Notes under the pieces: model-generated
What the model was told of the DNA's origin: nothing
What the model saw: the letters and a program-made list of their open reading frames with translations, nothing else
Database searches by the model: none
In this document: piece after piece, positions 21,792 through 30,011 of the stretch
Layout: every line of letters begins with the position of its first letter
How positions within the stretch are numbered: the stretch's first letter is position 1
Assembly: GCA_024401855.1 (NCBI GenBank)
Contig: JAKSKH010000002.1
Location: 31,589 to 95,588 of the forward strand
Length of the DNA: 64,000 bases
Reading direction: 5' to 3'
Origin: Bacteroidales bacterium
GTDB lineage: Bacteria; Bacteroidota; Bacteroidia; Bacteroidales; UBA932
Translations under genes and position numbers: made by a program

Positions 21792-24700
21792 ATGAAGAGA
21801 TTCCTTTTATTTGTTTTTCTGTTTTGTTCCGTTGTCCTGGGCGCTCAGGAAAGGGAAAGTGTCTGGCCCGCAGGCAGGATGCCTGATGCCCAAAGACATC
21901 AGATAGCTGCAATGACTTATGAGGCGGATGCACCCGGTTTTGATGCCGACGCCCACCGTATTGCTTATCTGGAGTGGTATGAAGCCCCGTCAGAACCGAA
22001 TGGAGGGTGTATGATTCTGATCTCGGGCGGCAGCTATCAATGTTGTTGCGATGACAGGTTGATCAAACTGTGGCGCGATACTTTCACCGGGCTTGGATTC
22101 CAATGCGTCAATTTTGTATACCGCACTCCCCGTCCGGAGGGACTTCCGATCTACCAGACAGCATGGGAAGACGGTCAGAGAGCTGTAAGGATGGTCCGCA
22201 GCGAGGCGGAACGCAGGGGTTTCGACCCGGAGAAGATAGGCACGATTTCCATGTCTGCCGGATCCCACCTTGCCCTTCTGCTTGCTACGAGTTCCCAGAC
22301 TCCTGCATATGGAAAGATAGATGCCATTGATGAAGTGCCCTGTCACATAAACTGGGCGATAGTCAACGCTCCGGCCTACGTGACTACCGACGGGCAGAAC
22401 GGGGACCCGGCTGAAAGGCTCGGTGTAGGGCCTGACGTAAAAATATCGGATGTCTTCAAGTTTGATGAAAAGACCTGTCCGGTCAGCCTTCACCATGGTG
22501 GAGAGGATCCGTACACCCCTATGGGTTCCACGCTCGTATACCGTCAGCTCCGCAAGATGGGGGTGCCTGCCGAACTCCATCTGTATCCTGGAAAGGGACA
22601 CGGTGCCTTCGGTCTTGAAAGAGGAATAGAATTCATAAATCAGATGGAGTTCGTGAAGCCCCTTGAACCTGAGGTTGCCATTGTTGAGCGTTATGCCGAT
22701 GACTGGGACAGGATAGACAAGATTACCGAGGACATATGGCCCGAAGGCAGGATGCCCTATGCAGATGAGGATCAGTGCCACCCCTATATAGAATGGAACA
22801 TACCGAGAGGCCGCAAGACAGATGCCGTGCAGATAATCTGGTCCGGCGGCTCCTATATGGGCAACGATCCCGACGGTTTTGAAGTGGCTCCTGCAAGACG
22901 CTACCTCAATGCACGGGGAATGACTGTCGTGACTTTGAAATACCGTACCCCCCGTCCTTCCGGAGAGAGCGGACTTGCCAAGCACGTGACGGCATGGCAG
23001 GATATCCAGCGAGCTGTCCGCCTGGTCCGCAGCGAGGCGCGCTCGCACGGGTGCGACCCGAATCAGATCGGCATTATGGGAAGCTCCGCCGGCGGTCATC
23101 TTGCAATGATGGGCGTCACTTCCTCCATGCAGCAGTCGTATGCCCCCATAGACGAGATAGACAAACTTCCCTGCAATGTGCAGTGGGGAATAGGCATTTA
23201 CCCCGCTTATGTCCTTTCAGACGGTTTTGACGATGTGAATGCCGGCAAGGGAAACAGCGATGAATACTACATCGCACCCGAATTCAATTTCGACAAGGCT
23301 ACGGCTCCCATGCTTTTCATTCACGGCGATTCTGACGGCTATTCTTCAATGGGCTCCGTCCGGGCGTGGGAAAAAATGCGCAATATGGGCGTACAGAGCG
23401 AACTGCATACGCTTGCAACACGCAACCACTGCTTTCAGAGAATCGCTTCTCCCGGAACGGGAAGTTACAGCTGGCTTGACCGTATAGGTGAATTCCTGGA
23501 CGAAAGGCTTGACGACTGGTGGGGGCACTATACTGCTCCCGAAGACCCTGCGGTACTGGCCAAACTGGATAAATGGCAGGACCTTAAGTTCGGTGTGATA
23601 TTCCATTGGGGCCTGTATTCGATTCCGGGAATTCTGGAATCATGGGCGCTATGTTCGGAAGAATGGACGTGGTCCGGGCGTGCAAATACAGGAATGCCTA
23701 TTGACCGGTTCAGAACCTGGTACTGGGGTTTGAAGGATGAGATGAATCCGACGGAATTCGATCCTGCGGCATGGGCTGACATAATGAAGGATGCAGGGAT
23801 GAAATACATGGTGTTCACAACCAAGCATCATGACGGTTTCTGTATGTTTGACTCCAAATATACAGACTTCAAGATTACAGAAAGTCCTTTTGGAAAGGAT
23901 CCGAGGAGCAATGTGTCGAAGGAAGTGTTCAATGCGTTCCGTGACAGGGGTTTCATGATTGGAGCCTATTTCTCCAAGCCGGACTGGCATTGCACTGATT
24001 TCTGGAATCCCCGTTTCTCGGCTCCGGACAGATTCCAGAATTATGACAGGAATCTACATCCGGACTGGTGGCGTTCATATGTTGATTACACAAAGAACCA
24101 GATGAACGAAATCACTTCCGATTATGGCAATATAGACATAATGTGGCTGGATGGAGGTTGGATTCCGGGCACAGACGTTGAACTCGGAGATGTTGTCAAG
24201 GGAGCCCGTGAGCGTAATCCCGGTATCATTTTCGTGGACAGGGCCTGCCGCGGTGAGTTTGAGAACTATCAGACCCCCGAGTGCACCATCCCTCCGTGCC
24301 AGTTTGATTTCCCTTGGGAGACCTGTGACGTGCTGGCAAGCTGGGGATGGGTGAACGATCCCGTTTACAAGAGTGCGGACAAAGTTATTTCCAACCTGAT
24401 AGAGGTCGTCGCCAAGGGTGGAAACTACCTTCTTGGCATAGGCCCCAGACCTGACGGGACAATTGATGAAGGGGCCCGGACTATTCTCTCCGCAGTCGGT
24501 GACTGGATGAGGAAATACGGCAAGGCCATATATAATACCCGTATTGCCAGGAATTACAATGACGGCAAGGTATGGTTCAATGCAGATAAGGATGGCAGGA
24601 CCCTTTACGCCCTGTACTCCTATGACGGAAGCGGAAGCATGCCTTCCACCATCGAGTGGACAGGAAATGTCCCCGCAGGAAAGATGATCCTGCTCTCTAC

Positions 24701-24803
24701 CGGTAAAACCGTCCGGTACAAGGTTTCAGGGGATAAAGTGAAAGTGACTCTGCCCGCTGGAATGCCGGCAGAGTCATTCGCGCTCTCTTTCTGCACACGC
24801 TGA
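21792..24803 (+). CDS. Fusion of two alpha/beta-hydrolase (carbohydrate-esterase-like) domains and a GH29 alpha-L-fucosidase
   Basis: Two homologous esterase units (SMSAGSHL; GSSAGGHL), then GH29 motifs KFGVIFHWGLYS, TTKHHDGF, WLDGGW; signal peptide. Confidence 0.88.
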   Translation: MKRFLLFVFLFCSVVLGAQERESVWPAGRMPDAQRHQIAAMTYEADAPGFDADAHRIAYLEWYEAPSEPNGGCMILISGGSYQCCCDDRLIKLWRDTFTGLGFQCVNFVYRTPRPEGLPIYQTAWEDGQRAVRMVRSEAERRGFDPEKIGTISMSAGSHLALLLATSSQTPAYGKIDAIDEVPCHINWAIVNAPAYVTTDGQNGDPAERLGVGPDVKISDVFKFDEKTCPVSLHHGGEDPYTPMGSTLVYRQLRKMGVPAELHLYPGKGHGAFGLERGIEFINQMEFVKPLEPEVAIVERYADDWDRIDKITEDIWPEGRMPYADEDQCHPYIEWNIPRGRKTDAVQIIWSGGSYMGNDPDGFEVAPARRYLNARGMTVVTLKYRTPRPSGESGLAKHVTAWQDIQRAVRLVRSEARSHGCDPNQIGIMGSSAGGHLAMMGVTSSMQQSYAPIDEIDKLPCNVQWGIGIYPAYVLSDGFDDVNAGKGNSDEYYIAPEFNFDKATAPMLFIHGDSDGYSSMGSVRAWEKMRNMGVQSELHTLATRNHCFQRIASPGTGSYSWLDRIGEFLDERLDDWWGHYTAPEDPAVLAKLDKWQDLKFGVIFHWGLYSIPGILESWALCSEEWTWSGRANTGMPIDRFRTWYWGLKDEMNPTEFDPAAWADIMKDAGMKYMVFTTKHHDGFCMFDSKYTDFKITESPFGKDPRSNVSKEVFNAFRDRGFMIGAYFSKPDWHCTDFWNPRFSAPDRFQNYDRNLHPDWWRSYVDYTKNQMNEITSDYGNIDIMWLDGGWIPGTDVELGDVVKGARERNPGIIFVDRACRGEFENYQTPECTIPPCQFDFPWETCDVLASWGWVNDPVYKSADKVISNLIEVVAKGGNYLLGIGPRPDGTIDEGARTILSAVGDWMRKYGKAIYNTRIARNYNDGKVWFNADKDGRTLYALYSYDGSGSMPSTIEWTGNVPAGKMILLSTGKTVRYKVSGDKVKVTLPAGMPAESFALSFCTR

Positions 24804-24807
24804 CCTG

Positions 24808-27795
24808 TTACAGCAATTTGAGTGAAATCAGGAATTCGCCCTGCTTGAGGCCGTTGCCCCAGGCACGGGCGTATCCCAATGACAAGGTGGTCTTCATGTG
24901 TGTGAAGAACACCATCTGTATATTCATCTGCGCCCCCGCTCCCAGATAGTTGCCTCCATCTGTAAGAAGGTCGTTGCAGAACATGCAGAATTGAATGTAG
25001 TTGGGATAGCATTGCAGGAAACCTATATTCTGGAACCTGATGGGGCAGAAGTCGAGTTCTCCTGTGAACTTTCCGAAACTGTGAGCCTTGATCTGGTCTA
25101 TCCTTACACCGGGGAATGCATTTGATGCGCGGAAACGGTTGATTGTGCCGCAGTCCACATAGTTGTTCCGGAATCCACCGAAGTAATAGTTTCCCAGTGC
25201 TGAGTTGGCGTCTCCGAAAGAATGCCCCGCCGCAGTCCTCAGCCAGAATGAATTATGCTGACCGACGGGAAGAAGGAACCCGAAGTCTCCGCTGAAGTCT
25301 ATGGATGGATATAATCTTCCGTCTGCAAGATATGTATAGGCATTGGCTGATAAAGTGTATCCCTGCTCTCCATCGACAAAGCCTATGGTTCTTCTCACTT
25401 TTTCAAGACCTGCATAAACGTTCGCTGTCTGGAACGAGGTTATTCCTTTGTCAACTTCAATCTCCTGATAAAGGGGGAGGGCGTCCATGTCTCCGTAATG
25501 TGCCAGGGAGGCACCCCAGTTCCAAGTGAATGGAGCCTGAATCTTATTGGTGTAATCGTATGCCAGCGAAACCTGATATCCTTTTCTTGAACTTCTCCTC
25601 GGACCGAACAGATCGTAGAAGTTGGTCGGGTTCCAGGCGGCTTTCAAAGTCCAGAATCTGTATTTTACATCTGCGCTTACGTGGAATCTGTTTTTCCATG
25701 CATTGTTGCTCCATGGGGAGGTGCCGACAAACAGATTTGCGGAAAACATGGAAAGGGGATCATAAAAAGACATCCTCGCTCCTAGAACCGGAGTCATGCT
25801 GTTCCATGCATTCTTGTCGGTAAAGCCGCTGATGTCCGGGTAGATTCCCTGAAAACCGGCTTCTTTCAAGGGTTTGTAGACTGAAATGGAATCATAAACC
25901 TCTCCGAAGGAAATGTGGTTCGGTTTGTTTTCATCATTGGCCAGCCCGGCAAGCCCGGGGTTGGCCTCAAAGGCTTTCTGACCAAGAAATTCCACACTGT
26001 TGGCATCGTGCAGTTCCTTGTATCCGAATGTGACAGGAGTCATACCTTCTGAAGAATATTCAAGGGCATATACTCTGTTGTCGGAAGCCAGGTAAGGTGC
26101 GAATATTCCCGTCTGGACGTTGGTGACCAGATTCAAATCTCCGGATTGGATGTCATATGACCATACGTTGGGAACACCGGTGTAATAGCTGAATCCAACA
26201 AGTTTGCTGTCATCCGCACTGAATCGGAACTGGCTCAGGTTGGAGTCTTCGAAACTGTTCAGGACAGTGTATTCCCCTGTTTCGTTTTCAAGGTCTTCGG
26301 TGTTGAACATCACCAGAGTATGCTCTCCTTTGAATCCCTGAACAGCAACTGTCAGATGCCTTCCGTCGTGCGAAACATCAAGGTCGCTCACACTCGTCCC
26401 GAACGGGAAAGTGTGGATTACGGTCTTGTTTTCAAGGTCTCTGTCATATTTTACCAGCAGACAAATGCCCTGATTGCTCATAAGTCCGTACAGACAGTCA
26501 TTCACGTTGTCGTAGCAGATGTCACCCACTCTCTGATACTTCATCCTTTTGACAACCTTTCCCTTGTCGAGATCATACACCACCAGACCTCTTATCTTTC
26601 CATTGCGGTCTGTCCATATCAGCCTCTGCCCTTTTTTGTCATATGCAAGATAGGCAGGATGATACATACGGCTGCCATCGATGTATGAGAGCCTTTTCCT
26701 GTCAGTTATCGTTTTTCCGTCCGTACTCAGTTCCAGCCTGTCTATCTGAGGGAAATCTCCCATTTGTGAAACAGCCGCGTACATGACGTGATTGTCTTCG
26801 TCCAGAATCATCGGAGAAACCGAGCCGAGATTTTCTTCAGTAAGTTTTGCGGTCTCTGTCAGGGGATATTCCGCAATTTTCTCAAGATTCTGACTTTGAT
26901 GCTCTTTCTCGAACTGCCCCCATTGTGTCCAGACATCGCGAAGCTTGCTCCCGTAGATATTCTCAAACTGGTTTACGTAGGATCTTCTGCTGTCGTCGGT
27001 CCTGTTGTAGAATTGAATGAGCTTGTCGTAGCCGTATTCGTAGGCAAGGTAGTTGATGAAACGTGTTCCGTACAGGTATGCCGTTGAACCCTGTTCCACA
27101 TCGGAAGTGGTGCCTTCCGTTTCAAGTCCAACTACGGAGAAGAAATCTTTTCCGTCTTTAACCCGGGTCCTGAAATATGCTTCGTCGTATCCGCCAAGTG
27201 CCCGGCCCACTCCTCCGCTGAGCCAGGTTTCCATAAAACAGGCTATTCCCTCCTGGTACCACCTTGGTGCATACCACCTTGGCGCATCCAGGTAACTCCA
27301 AAGTGCGCTTAAAGGGTATTGCGGATTCACAACCACTTTGTTCCTTGTGAAATTCCTCCACCGTCTGTCTTCCGCTCCGGCTTTATCTGTAGCGACAATA
27401 TGGGTATATTCGTGCTTGAACAGAAAATCGAACTTTTCCGTTGACGCAGATGGAAAATATGATTTGTTGATAGGTGCAAGGCTTATCTGCAAGGCTGTGT
27501 GCGGAATGGCTATAACTCCCGCATTGCCGTCATCGGCGAAATCCGTCAGAAGCATGTACGGAATCTCCGTAGGCAAACCTCCCCATATCTGTCTGTGCAA
27601 CGACCTGGCCTGATCATATTTCCGGATGAGGTTCGGAATATAATGAGACTGGTTCTTGTCTACGAAACATACATAAGCGCTGTCGCTTTTGTACTTGTAG
27701 ATTGTCTGCGCGCCAATACACGTGCTGTGGGCCATGGATATTATCCACAGCCCACAGACAAGTGTTATGATTCCTGATGTTCTAGTTTTCAGCAT
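24808..27795 (-). CDS. Exported zinc metallopeptidase (HExxH) + beta-propeller + probable outer-membrane beta-barrel (Omp85-like)
   Basis: Signal peptide; HEYTH at aa 128-132 and PRWYQEGIA (E182, gluzincin-type third ligand); TolB/WD40-like repeats (VSHDG, FSADDS); C-terminal third made of amphipathic beta-strands. Confidence 0.75.
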   Translation of the reverse strand: MLKTRTSGIITLVCGLWIISMAHSTCIGAQTIYKYKSDSAYVCFVDKNQSHYIPNLIRKYDQARSLHRQIWGGLPTEIPYMLLTDFADDGNAGVIAIPHTALQISLAPINKSYFPSASTEKFDFLFKHEYTHIVATDKAGAEDRRWRNFTRNKVVVNPQYPLSALWSYLDAPRWYAPRWYQEGIACFMETWLSGGVGRALGGYDEAYFRTRVKDGKDFFSVVGLETEGTTSDVEQGSTAYLYGTRFINYLAYEYGYDKLIQFYNRTDDSRRSYVNQFENIYGSKLRDVWTQWGQFEKEHQSQNLEKIAEYPLTETAKLTEENLGSVSPMILDEDNHVMYAAVSQMGDFPQIDRLELSTDGKTITDRKRLSYIDGSRMYHPAYLAYDKKGQRLIWTDRNGKIRGLVVYDLDKGKVVKRMKYQRVGDICYDNVNDCLYGLMSNQGICLLVKYDRDLENKTVIHTFPFGTSVSDLDVSHDGRHLTVAVQGFKGEHTLVMFNTEDLENETGEYTVLNSFEDSNLSQFRFSADDSKLVGFSYYTGVPNVWSYDIQSGDLNLVTNVQTGIFAPYLASDNRVYALEYSSEGMTPVTFGYKELHDANSVEFLGQKAFEANPGLAGLANDENKPNHISFGEVYDSISVYKPLKEAGFQGIYPDISGFTDKNAWNSMTPVLGARMSFYDPLSMFSANLFVGTSPWSNNAWKNRFHVSADVKYRFWTLKAAWNPTNFYDLFGPRRSSRKGYQVSLAYDYTNKIQAPFTWNWGASLAHYGDMDALPLYQEIEVDKGITSFQTANVYAGLEKVRRTIGFVDGEQGYTLSANAYTYLADGRLYPSIDFSGDFGFLLPVGQHNSFWLRTAAGHSFGDANSALGNYYFGGFRNNYVDCGTINRFRASNAFPGVRIDQIKAHSFGKFTGELDFCPIRFQNIGFLQCYPNYIQFCMFCNDLLTDGGNYLGAGAQMNIQMVFFTHMKTTLSLGYARAWGNGLKQGEFLISLKLL

Positions 27796-28879
27796 TGTTG
27801 AAGCCGTTTACTGATCCTTCGAAACCGTTTACTGCTCCACCGAAGCCGTTGACTGCACCGCCGAAGCCATTTACTGATTCTTCAAAACCGTTTACTGCTC
27901 CACCGAATCCGCAGATGATATCGCATACCACGTTGATTGCTCCACCAAATCCGTTTACTGATTCCTCAAAACCATTGACTGCACCGCCGAATCCATTGAC
28001 TGCGCCGCCGAAACCGTTTACTGCTCCACCGAAGCCATTGACTGCTCCGCCGAAACCATTTACTGACTCCTCAAAACCGTTGACTGATCCTTCGAAACCG
28101 TTTACTGCACCACCGAAGCCATTTACTGACTCCTCAAAACCGTTTACTGCACCACCGAAGCCGTTGACTGCACCGCCAAAGCCGTTAACTGCTCCACCGA
28201 ATCCGTTTACTGACTCCTCAAAACCGGCAAGTTTCTCTCCCCAGAATTCCATTTCGCTCTTGGAATTGTTCAGAACTGCATCCTGCATGCAATATACTGA
28301 CCATTCCGCAATCAGTTTTGCTACAGAAGCGCTTTCTTCTTCTGATTTTCCATTGATGTATGATGTGGCATTTTCTACGAATGCCTTGCCAATGGCAAGC
28401 TGGTTCTCAATTTTCTTGAATCCGACGAAAACGTTGTTTGACACCTGCTCATATTCCGGGGCCTTTTTTCCTTCCGCAAGTTTCTCAACACCCGAAACCG
28501 CTTTGTTGATAGAGTTCATGGTATTTGCAGCTTTTGCGTTGAGAGATTTCACCGGAGCGATTGCAGACTCAAGCTCGGGAATTCCGGCACAGACCTCAAG
28601 AGTCCTTGCAGTGAGGTTTTCCAGATTCTCCACACGGTTTTCAAGCAATGCATAGGCGTTCTTGGTAAGATGCAGGAAAGCTGTGTCATTCTGAATCTTT
28701 TCCTCGAGAGCGGATACCTCGGGATCTTCCTTTACATTATTATAGCGGGTCGCTTTTGAAATGTCTCCGCTGAGAAGGTCGCTCTGTGAATTGTTAGCGT
28801 TGAAGAGAAAACTGGCTCCGAATCCTACCAGTGCCGCAAGCACAAGGTAAATTGCAAAATTTGAATTTTTAACGTACAT
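27782..28879 (-). CDS. Exported/membrane-anchored protein with 21 C-terminal tandem heptapeptides (GFGGAVN/GFEESVN/GFEGSVN)
   Basis: Hydrophobic N-terminal segment, helical middle region, 147-aa repeat tail. Likely start ATG 28879 downstream of a -7 box (track start 28924). Stop overlaps the next gene by 14 nt. Confidence 0.85.
   Translation of the reverse strand: MYVKNSNFAIYLVLAALVGFGASFLFNANNSQSDLLSGDISKATRYNNVKEDPEVSALEEKIQNDTAFLHLTKNAYALLENRVENLENLTARTLEVCAGIPELESAIAPVKSLNAKAANTMNSINKAVSGVEKLAEGKKAPEYEQVSNNVFVGFKKIENQLAIGKAFVENATSYINGKSEEESASVAKLIAEWSVYCMQDAVLNNSKSEMEFWGEKLAGFEESVNGFGGAVNGFGGAVNGFGGAVNGFEESVNGFGGAVNGFEGSVNGFEESVNGFGGAVNGFGGAVNGFGGAVNGFGGAVNGFEESVNGFGGAINVVCDIICGFGGAVNGFEESVNGFGGAVNGFGGAVNGFEGSVNGFNNAEN
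27785..28225 (-). repeat. 21-bp-period tandem repeat, 21 units, protein-coding
   Basis: Units such as CCGTTTACTGCTCCACCGAAG, CCGTTGACTGCACCGCCGAAG and CCATTGACTGCGCCGCCGAAA. Differences among same-peptide units are synonymous on the minus strand. Confidence 0.95.
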
Positions 28880-28921: not shown

Positions 28922-29010
28922 CAAAGGTAGGCAAATGCAAATCTCTTTTCCTAATAAATTGTGGCGTTGGGAAGTATTTTTGTGAACTTGTTATCTTTTT
29001 TGTAGTTTTG
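28922..29010. promoter_or_regulatory. Divergent promoter pair for the repeat-protein operon (minus) and the AraC gene (plus)
   Basis: Plus strand: TTTG(28979-82)-N20-TAGTTTTG(29003-10). Minus strand: TACCTTTG at 28929-28922 with a degenerate TTAG -33 box 21 nt upstream. Confidence 0.6.
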
Positions 29011-29039: not shown

Positions 29040-30011
29040 ATGGACAGGTATCTTGACATACTTCCTGCTGCTGTAACTTTATTCTGGATTATCAGAATCT
29101 TTTTTCTCGGAAATGTGAATAAGGTTCAACTGTACATTGTATGGGGTATGATAATGGCCGTTCTCACCATCTTCTACGGCAGGTTCTTCGTTCTTTTCGT
29201 TTTCCCTCTTTTCCATATGGCTGTAAGGCAAAAAACCTGTTCCGGCGGTGTGACCAAGTGGGATTGGGCGGTTCTGCTTCCCTCGTTCCTGCTGGAGCCG
29301 TATACCGACACCCGTTTTTTCGTCGTTTTTCTGTGCCTGCAGATAGCCTTTATTACTGTATGGTCAGTGATGTCGGTCAGGAAATATGAGCACAGGTTTG
29401 CAGAATTGTATGATTCCGGGGGCGAAATGTCTGCGGAGGATATCGGCCAGGTGCTTACTTTCATGATTATCACAGTGCTTGTTTTTGTGATAGAGATGAT
29501 ACTCCCGGCATACGTGGCATCCTATTTCTGGGTGCGGCTCTTCCTGGCCTCATTCGTGGCCCTGTTGCAGTTCATGATAGGATATTATACCTTCAGGATG
29601 AAGGATACTTCGCTTATTGCCGAAGAATTGTCCGATGACAGCATGCTGGCAGACGGAAAACAGGAGGCTCTCTCCACTGATGATGAACTGATAAGAAAGG
29701 CTGTGGATGACGAACTTTTCCTTGACCCGACGATCTCCCTGGTTTCCATGGCCGAGAAACTCGGCACTAACCGTACATACCTTTCCAACAGCATTCATTC
29801 CTGCAGAGGTATGAATTTCTCGGATTTTGTCAACAGCCTTCGAATAGAATATTTCACACGCATTGTCGGTGAACTTGGGCCCGAGGCGAACATCAAGGAA
29901 GCTGCCATGCGCTCCGGATACAGCAATCTGCAATCGTTCTACCGGAATTTCTCCGAAATAATGAAGGTGACTCCTGCGGTGTGGATAAGGGAAAACCTGA
30001 AAGAAAAATAA
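29040..30011 (+). CDS. Membrane-anchored AraC-family transcriptional regulator
   Basis: About 6 hydrophobic segments in the N-terminal 185 aa; C-terminal FLDPTISL..MAEKLGTNRTYLS...NFSDFVNSLRIE...SGYSNLQSFYRNF. Confidence 0.92.
   Translation: MDRYLDILPAAVTLFWIIRIFFLGNVNKVQLYIVWGMIMAVLTIFYGRFFVLFVFPLFHMAVRQKTCSGGVTKWDWAVLLPSFLLEPYTDTRFFVVFLCLQIAFITVWSVMSVRKYEHRFAELYDSGGEMSAEDIGQVLTFMIITVLVFVIEMILPAYVASYFWVRLFLASFVALLQFMIGYYTFRMKDTSLIAEELSDDSMLADGKQEALSTDDELIRKAVDDELFLDPTISLVSMAEKLGTNRTYLSNSIHSCRGMNFSDFVNSLRIEYFTRIVGELGPEANIKEAAMRSGYSNLQSFYRNFSEIMKVTPAVWIRENLKEK

Follow-up and report, generated by a model that had tools for sequence, protein, structure and literature searches.

Peptide-level conservation of a 21-unit heptapeptide array in a predicted membrane-anchored protein encoded beside a putative peptidase-propeller-barrel protein of Bacteroidales

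The DNA analysed here is a stretch of 64,000 nucleotides, hereafter the window, from a Bacteroidales bacterium (GTDB lineage UBA932; GenBank assembly GCA_024401855.1, contig JAKSKH010000002.1, positions 31,589 to 95,588 of the forward strand). On its minus strand lies a gene, here called TAIL, whose product ends in an array of 21 seven-residue units, and this is followed by a gene for a large protein with predicted peptidase-like, propeller and barrel domains, here called BIG. The array had been pointed out in a sequence-only reading made without database searches, and its composition, selection, relatives and gene neighbourhood were followed up in this analysis. The features of TAIL, from the start of the protein to its end, are as follows.

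27782..28879, minus strand: the TAIL gene, 365 amino acids (aa), with its ATG at 28879 and its stop codon at 27782-27784, from the open reading frame (ORF) and its translation
28799..28867, minus strand: N-terminal hydrophobic helix, aa 5-27, a helix in the AlphaFold2 model, read as an uncleaved signal anchor
28742..28771, minus strand: membrane-adjacent motif S-G-D-I-S-K-A-T-R-Y, aa 37-46, in a low-confidence linker
28226..28723, minus strand: helical-bundle domain, aa 53-218 (AlphaFold2 is confident to aa 222), with a predicted local distance difference test (pLDDT) score above 90
27785..28225, minus strand: the array of 21 heptapeptide units, aa 219-365
27911..27931, minus strand: the odd fifteenth unit, VVCDIIC, which is hydrophobic with the pattern C-x-x-x-C and has the same position across all alleles

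The translation of 27782-28879 confirmed the repeat as it had been described from the letters alone and placed the gene on the minus strand. The final 147 residues of TAIL are exactly 21 heptads in a single register, made up of GFGGAVN (11 copies), GFEESVN (five), GFEGSVN (two) and one copy each of GFGGAIN, VVCDIIC and the terminal GFNNAEN. The sequence-only reading had stated that nearly every junction is Asn-Gly, and this pair was found at 18 of the 20 unit junctions. The tail is periodic well beyond chance, with an autocorrelation of 0.68 at lag 14 (z = 29 relative to shuffled sequences).

In the DNA of the array, Tandem Repeats Finder (TRF) returned only 73-74% matches, at periods of 42, 63 and 84. 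There were 9 distinct 21-mers among the 11 GFGGAVN units, with a mean pairwise identity of 17.9 of 21 nt. In Nei-Gojobori counts of unit against unit, the proportions of synonymous (pS) and nonsynonymous (pN) differences were 0.56 and 0.011 in the neutral class (GFGGAVN and GFGGAIN) and 0.55 and 0.029 in the acidic class (GFEESVN and GFEGSVN), a pN/pS of 0.02-0.05 within the unit classes, while all 20 GF units pooled had a ratio of 0.22. Because pS is about 0.55 and pN is 0.01-0.03, the array is conserved as a peptide whereas its DNA is not, and purifying selection acts on the peptide of each unit. Among the relatives of TAIL, seven further arrays built of unrelated units had a pS of 0.29-0.74 against a pN of 0.03-0.13; as pS is well above pN in all of them, selection of the single units as peptides is a feature of the family as a whole. 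The earlier proposal that the units are kept as peptides with varied synonymous codons, and are not the product of fresh slippage, is therefore borne out. A young DNA-level repeat, of the kind expected from slippage in a variable number tandem repeat, was ruled out by the 24 distinct 21-mers found among 76 units in four alleles, together with the high pS and the low TRF matches.

The number of units is polymorphic nevertheless, with alleles of 15, 16, 21 and 24 units in close strains. The identical 21-unit tail is present in an independent ENA assembly (P0066, in the 90% cluster of the TAIL protein), the 24-unit allele (P0065) belongs to the same 90% cluster, and the tails of 16 and 15 units come from two relatives at 94% identity. 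When each distinct 21-mer was labelled, the units proved to be individually orthologous between the four alleles, which share recognisable 21-mers in an unchanged order. The final eight units are stable between alleles, and whole units have been gained or lost in the middle of the array. An assembly artefact is ruled out by the independent assemblies and the shared unit order.

Five more members of the 90% cluster of TAIL are proteins of 213 aa that have no tail. A locus that is 99% identical to the window (L123) lacks 25788-28253, which holds the array and the first two thirds of BIG, and also lacks 24945-25360, with 12-nt overlaps at both deletion junctions; its remnants are a tail-less TAIL of 213 aa and a BIG remnant of 150 aa. 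As a single deletion spans the array and most of BIG, the tail and BIG were lost together. With regard to conservation among orthologues, the sequence-only reading held in part: orthologues at 94% identity or more share the units of the window, at greater distance the units are unrelated or the tails lack a period, and the tail-less orthologue in the 99%-identical strain exists but has lost most of BIG too.

These alleles bear on the possibility that the tail is a fast-evolving, functionally unimportant appendix produced by repeat expansion. This would fit the hypervariable and often non-periodic tails of the family, the whole-unit gains and losses between strains and the existence of a natural deletion allele. 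However, the low pN/pS within the unit classes of the window and in the seven other arrays is difficult to reconcile with neutrality, the units carry DNA 'barcodes' that are stably orthologous between alleles, and essentially every full-length member of the family has a tail, of 60-330 aa. Moreover, the deletion allele removes BIG as well, so that it has lost the module as a whole rather than just an expendable tail. We consider a neutral tail improbable.

Two alleles, P0002 and P0003, differ from the window TAIL almost exclusively in aa 1-37 (28769-28879), covering the anchor and linker, with the rest being almost identical. In its anchor and linker P0002 resembles more distant members of the family. 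The pattern suggests a mosaic, recombined 5' end of the TAIL gene.

From its sequence, TAIL would be a membrane-anchored periplasmic protein with a repeat tail. No cleavage site of the A-x-A type was seen in its N-terminal sequence, so the anchor is probably uncleaved; in some distant homologues (from three loci) a lipobox replaces it. The linker at aa 30-48 had a pLDDT below 50 in the AlphaFold2 model, which was built with 38 relatives. The membrane-adjacent motif lies within this linker, and its G-x-I-x-K core is the best-conserved element of the whole TAIL family, with G38 invariant and K42 nearly so in two alignments, making the motif a candidate protease or docking site. The tail had no confident structure (pLDDT about 30). 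It was modelled with no beta structure and with any helices predicted only at this very low level of confidence, and folding that depends on assembly would be compatible with such a model.

No family could be assigned to TAIL from its fold, as the only matches in a search of 48,161 PDB representatives were to generic helical bundles, at a Z no higher than 9.9, which is below the meaningful level for helical proteins. Searches of TAIL against Pfam and NCBIfam gave no family above threshold and only sub-threshold low-complexity matches, Pfam gave nothing above threshold for ten distant TAIL proteins, and a Protein Atlas feature search with the N-terminal domain gave no usable match. Membership of MINT_RAM7 (25.6 bits against 108) was rejected, as was membership of NF047709 RiPP_TigB, which had a low-complexity match at aa 208-271 with 24.8 bits against a curated cut-off of 70. 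A role as an anti-sigma factor was also rejected because TAIL has no cytoplasmic domain, with only about four residues predicted to be cytoplasmic.

A search with the N-terminal domain found 59 close homologues of TAIL in Bacteroidales metagenome genomes, and a profile of this domain found 748 clusters at 50% identity (616 at E <=1e-10), in all of which the domain sits N-terminally. On sequence comparison, TAIL is a member of an unnamed Bacteroidota protein family with an anchor, the G-x-I-x-K motif, a helical bundle of about 170 aa and a hypervariable tail, and the heptad array is the local form of this tail. Strong periodicity was found in 27 of 76 and in 24 of 124 members (about 20-35%), with periods of 5-13, the others being degenerate or non-periodic. 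A clear period is thus missing from about 65-80% of the family tails, so a tail need not be periodic.

The units of the relatives are lineage-specific and include GLNLDGVNS (9 residues), GFNEAAVN, GENLKSVA, LNQEFTQN and ESAANLFG (8), MDNLTQN and VDQQMGR (7, the latter in about 20 copies) and PGLNNT (6, about 30 copies). One tail has ITNETVSN units followed by SSDVMRN, and many environmental lineages have x-x-DAEKLG-x-x units of 8-10 residues. The sister lineage P0006 keeps an A/S-V-N-G-F core in a unit of 8 residues, which shows that the period is not constrained, and its counterpart of VVCDIIC is GVCMVVC, also a hydrophobic C-x-x-x-C unit. Across the family the tails are enriched in Gly (1.9-fold), Met and Asn (1.26-fold) and depleted in Tyr, Lys, Arg and Glu, 75% of them have a net negative charge, and a loose acidic-x-hydrophobic-Gly/Asn core recurs across lineages (DAEKLG, ESVNGF, DGVNSGL).

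This variation argues against two of the structural options in the sequence-only reading. The first was a cross-beta or beta-solenoid polymer. In the form considered here, GFGG or FG-type units would assemble into a cross-beta, kinked-sheet, hydrogel-like or beta-solenoid material after export through the Omp85 barrel, with a loose analogy to functional amyloids that have their own outer-membrane channel. Segments of the NGFGG type are similar to FG repeats and to kinked, aromatic-rich segments of low complexity, the array is rich in Gly, Asn and Phe, and a dedicated barrel is encoded next door. Nevertheless, the model had no beta structure, the period ranges from 5 to 13 in the family and differs (7 against 8) even between sister lineages with a shared VNGF, other lineages have many charged units that favour helices (e.g. 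DAEKLG and AEQVRNSA), and TAIL is anchored at its N-terminus. A polymer is thus a remote prospect. The second option was a Gly-rich pseudo-coiled coil, which is likewise disfavoured, as the period is not conserved, three of the seven residues in GFGGAVN are Gly and no confident fold was obtained.

The gene that overlaps the end of TAIL has the following features.

24808..27795, minus strand: the BIG gene, 995 aa, with a signal peptide, a peptidase-like domain, a propeller and a beta-barrel
27400..27414, minus strand: HEYTH zinc motif, aa 128-132 of BIG, from an alignment of homologues
27782..27795, minus strand: 14-nt overlap between the end of TAIL (GFNNAEN and stop) and the start of BIG (MLKT...), read directly from the sequence

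The AlphaFold2 model of BIG (pLDDT 80.7, predicted template modelling score 0.81) has an HExxH peptidase-like domain at aa 33-307, a six-bladed TolB-like propeller at aa 320-596 and a beta-barrel at aa 647-994. BIG is probably an active peptidase because H128, E129, H132 and E182 are invariant in 25 homologues with 33-71% identity. The propeller matched TolB with a Z of 21.4 and a root-mean-square deviation of 2.9 over 242 residues, and Foldseek agreed, with PDB 2ivz and 3iax among its propeller matches; the propeller is of a type that binds peptides. Fold searches with the whole model were dominated by the propeller, and YncE (E = 0.2) was the only match when PDB sequences were searched with a profile of BIG. 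Over the whole chain, BIG matched Atlas clusters of about 1000 aa from several phyla at a TM-score of 0.94, and related clusters carry PD40, Omp85 and Peptidase_MA_2. In the alignment of BIG homologues the Pfam matches were weak (PD40, Peptidase_MA_2 and Omp85_2); Omp85_2 was matched in 3 of 25 homologues and the BIG of the window was itself below the curated level. Pfam detected no POTRA or two-partner secretion (TPS) domain in the window neighbours or the BIG homologues. The model places BIG in the 'WD40-Omp85' type, with a propeller N-terminal to a predicted Omp85-type barrel. This subfamily of the Omp85/TpsB superfamily was catalogued by Heinz & Lithgow in 2014 without a function and with no repeat-tail partner protein described (PMC4104836), and the term is scarce in the literature beyond that paper.

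The last unit of the array is dual-coding, as its final codons and the stop codon overlap the ATG of BIG by 14 nt, an arrangement that suggests translational coupling. The sequence-only reading had taken the flush end of the register as a sign of discrete units. The array does end flush here, but this end is constrained because the last unit and the stop overlap the start of the next gene, and the ending is local, the tails of other family members finishing in non-repeat sequence.

To place TAIL and BIG among their neighbours, 80 genome loci were retrieved through BIG and the neighbouring genes were clustered. BIG was present in 80/80 loci, TAIL in 69/80 and PrsW in 67/80, and most of the 11 loci without TAIL are interrupted by contig ends. 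As in the window, TAIL lies directly upstream of the peptidase/PD40/Omp85 gene. In 10 loci there are two or three tandem TAIL genes before a single BIG; a DAEKLG-type motif is common to these paralogues, and their tail length and order differ. About 20 environmental Bacteroidota loci have the genes arranged as PrsW, extracytoplasmic function (ECF) sigma factor, a single-pass protein of about 250 aa, TAIL and BIG. The single-pass protein has no Pfam match and is likely to be an anti-sigma factor, and HATPase_c_2 (anti-sigma-kinase-like) and NMT1/THI5-like genes are often found near the environmental loci. In gut and rumen lineages the order is TAIL, BIG and PrsW, frequently with a membrane AraC regulator in place of the sigma and anti-sigma genes, and PrsW is kept in these modules even when those genes are missing. 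The type of regulator therefore varies across loci, being ECF/anti-sigma, AraC or none. In the window, two features lie on the other side of TAIL.

28922..28929, minus strand: promoter-like TAccTTTG, 43 nt upstream of the TAIL ATG
29040..30011, plus strand: membrane AraC-type regulator with a multi-transmembrane N-terminal half and HTH_18 (Pfam, 6.3e-13)

We take TAccTTTG to be a putative promoter element, as it fits the Bacteroides -7 consensus TAnnTTTG. The AraC gene is divergent from TAIL in the window and is linked to the module in closer relatives.

The 2.03-Mb draft genome that contains the window also has a second, paralogous module, which is divided between the ends of two contigs. At one end (C8:1-1939) a membrane AraC gene is followed by a 90-aa mini-TAIL, with the anchor and an ADISKAAKF motif only, and by a TAIL paralogue that is cut at the contig end. 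At the other (C34:84675-88814) a BIG paralogue with 50% identity, covering aa 231-995 and also cut, is followed by PrsW. The missing piece is probably the repeat tail of the TAIL paralogue, which would not have been assembled. A cultured rumen isolate, Xylanibacter ruminicola D31d (NZ_FNRF01000003.1), has the order TAIL, BIG and PrsW, with a non-periodic tail, and would be a possible host for experiments. In the window, a 1003-aa protein (21792-24803, plus strand) is encoded convergently with BIG and carries two alpha/beta-hydrolase (esterase) domains and a GH29 alpha-L-fucosidase (Pfam: Alpha_L_fucos 8.3e-82, BD-FAE 3.3e-27). Pfam assigned the window neighbours to AraC, a pyridoxal phosphate-dependent enzyme, esterase/fucosidase, lipoate ligase and aldolase, and the genes in the loci of relatives to PrsW, AraC, ECF sigma, HATPase_c_2, NMT1 and ABC genes. 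Literature searches on Omp85 with PD40, WD40-Omp85, PrsW contexts and multicore precursors returned no description of the module or the tail family.

The reading we tentatively favour, though at a little less than an even chance, is that the tail is a disordered array in which a short motif, repeated many times, is bound and probably cut by BIG. TAIL would have its anchor in the inner membrane, replaced by a lipid in some lineages, with its helical bundle facing the periplasm and its tail forming a flexible, Gly/Asn-rich and mostly acidic string with one or two hydrophobic residues beside Gly or Asn in each unit. It would be made together with BIG and probably works on the periplasmic face of BIG, where the propeller and the peptidase domain could capture and cut the motifs. 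The tail would then serve an envelope proteolysis module as its substrate or bait. PrsW, a known site-1 protease for the single-pass anti-sigma factor RsiW (PMC3482391), may free TAIL at the conserved membrane-adjacent motif, and the transcriptional switch of the module could be the ECF sigma/anti-sigma pair in environmental lineages and the membrane AraC regulator in the window.

A number of observations lead to this reading. BIG, usually with PrsW, is encoded beside TAIL, and the tail is therefore probably what this machinery binds or cuts. Each unit is under purifying selection, so each copy matters, as expected of repeated binding or cleavage motifs. The free change of period and sequence, together with the recurring acidic-x-hydrophobic-Gly/Asn core, is more readily explained by a short linear motif than by a fixed fold. 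The invariant catalytic residues and TolB-like propeller of BIG, the absence of a confident fold in the tail next to a confidently modelled N-terminal domain, the one deletion that took the tail along with the first two thirds of BIG, and the retention of PrsW in gut modules that lack the sigma and anti-sigma genes also speak for it. Several points weigh on the other side. The contact between TAIL and BIG and the cleavage of the tail are inferred, and the gene linkage would be equally compatible with a regulatory or steric function in which nothing is cut. No cleavage-site consensus could be defined across the unrelated tail units, and most of the family tails are not clearly periodic, as described above. 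There is also no PrsW adjacent to the TAIL-BIG locus of the window, although PrsW genes are found elsewhere in the same draft genome. Finally, the units were picked by their similarity to the consensus, which biases pN somewhat downward.

A tail that is not consumed is a doubtful but real alternative. It could serve as a flexible tether or pseudo-substrate, i.e. a 'sensing arm' that occupies or positions BIG or PrsW, with its sequence mattering only for solubility, length and weak multivalent contacts. The linkage of the genes is as expected for a cut substrate, environmental lineages have the module embedded in a sigma/anti-sigma/PrsW cassette, the AlphaFold2 model shows the tail as disordered, and tail length is polymorphic between close strains, all of which would suit such an arm. 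However, a very low pN with a near-saturated pS in eight independent arrays is more constraint than a spacer needs, and the invariant catalytic residues of BIG imply that some substrate must exist.

A narrower version of the favoured reading, in which the tail is cut and its motifs are released as discrete peptides, corresponds to the multi-core precursor of the sequence-only reading. Here BIG, with or without PrsW, would cut at each junction and yield many copies of two or three short linear peptides (GFGGAVN, neutral, and GFEESVN, acidic), which would act as strain-specific signals or bioactive molecules, perhaps exported via the Omp85 barrel and sensed by the AraC or anti-sigma partner. The units are the same as peptides and differ only in synonymous codons, their junctions are uniform, their types are lineage-specific and their number varies by strain, and the module has two proteases (the HExxH...E of BIG, and PrsW) and a membrane-bound regulator. 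There is also a weak resemblance to TigB, a repeat-containing ribosomally synthesised and post-translationally modified peptide (RiPP). This part of the proposal fits the co-encoded proteases, but other parts fit poorly: the 'leader' would be a 218-aa anchored and folded helical domain, the TigB score is far below its cut-off, most family tails would yield heterogeneous fragments, and the regulator type is not conserved. Pfam gave no modifying enzyme (radical SAM, YcaO, ATP-grasp, lanthionine synthetase and the like) and no known peptide-export-type transporter among the neighbours in the window or the loci of relatives. We therefore regard a multi-core precursor as unlikely. The fullest form of the idea, in which TAIL is a cassette of strain-specific linear peptides that PrsW frees, the BIG zinc peptidase and Omp85 barrel cut and export, and the regulator of the module reads back, seems more unlikely still; if true, it would mean that Gram-negative gut bacteria use unmodified peptides for signalling or kin discrimination in a system based on an Omp85 protein.

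Proteins of the Omp85 superfamily have a central place in outer-membrane biology, and the propeller-bearing branch has been without a function or a partner since the 2014 catalogue. TAIL gives this branch a constant partner whose variable tail is selected unit by unit, which makes the substrate of the barrel-peptidase a testable question. Cleavage of the tail into defined peptides would amount to a new way of producing peptides or of signalling in gut and rumen Bacteroidales, whereas a bait would give diderm bacteria a new means of relaying envelope events to transcription. The alleles that occur naturally (15, 16, 21 and 24 units, and the co-deletion of tail and BIG) are ready experimental material.

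Compared with known systems, the module resembles the sigma-W/RsiW/PrsW (site-1)/RasP pathway of Bacillus subtilis in having a PrsW-family protease in most TAIL-BIG loci and in the environmental gene order of PrsW, ECF sigma and putative anti-sigma before TAIL and BIG. Like RsiW, TAIL is a predicted single-pass membrane protein with an extracytoplasmic domain, but it has only about four cytoplasmic residues, and the module adds an outer-membrane peptidase barrel in a diderm setting. In the window, the membrane AraC regulator stands in place of the sigma and anti-sigma factors, and PrsW is not adjacent.

The likeness to WD40-Omp85 proteins describes BIG and not the tail: BIG has a TolB-like propeller before a predicted Omp85-type barrel, but adds an N-terminal HExxH peptidase-like domain. 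As in two-partner secretion (TpsA/TpsB, FhaB/FhaC), a barrel of the Omp85 superfamily is encoded beside a partner with a conserved N-terminus and a variable C-terminus. However, POTRA and TPS domains were not detected in the search above, TAIL is anchored and helical instead of a beta-helix, and its export is putative.

Multi-core ribosomal peptide precursors include cyanobactin PatE, TigB and the fungal repeat precursors processed by Kex2. TAIL is similar to these in having many identical units in one ORF, uniform junctions, peptides that are kept while codons vary and a co-encoded peptidase. It differs in its N-terminal region of 218 aa, which is anchored and folded where a short leader would be expected, in having no modifying enzyme nearby, in the degenerate tails of most relatives and in its score with the TigB model (24.8 bits against 70).

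A parallel to the contact proposed here is offered by the TolB-box epitopes in the disordered translocation domains of colicins, in which a short linear motif within Gly/Asn/Ser-rich disorder meets a six-bladed propeller of the TolB type. TAIL has no TolB-box sequence and the comparison is purely an analogy, but it illustrates how a propeller such as that of BIG might engage the repeated motifs of a disordered tail.

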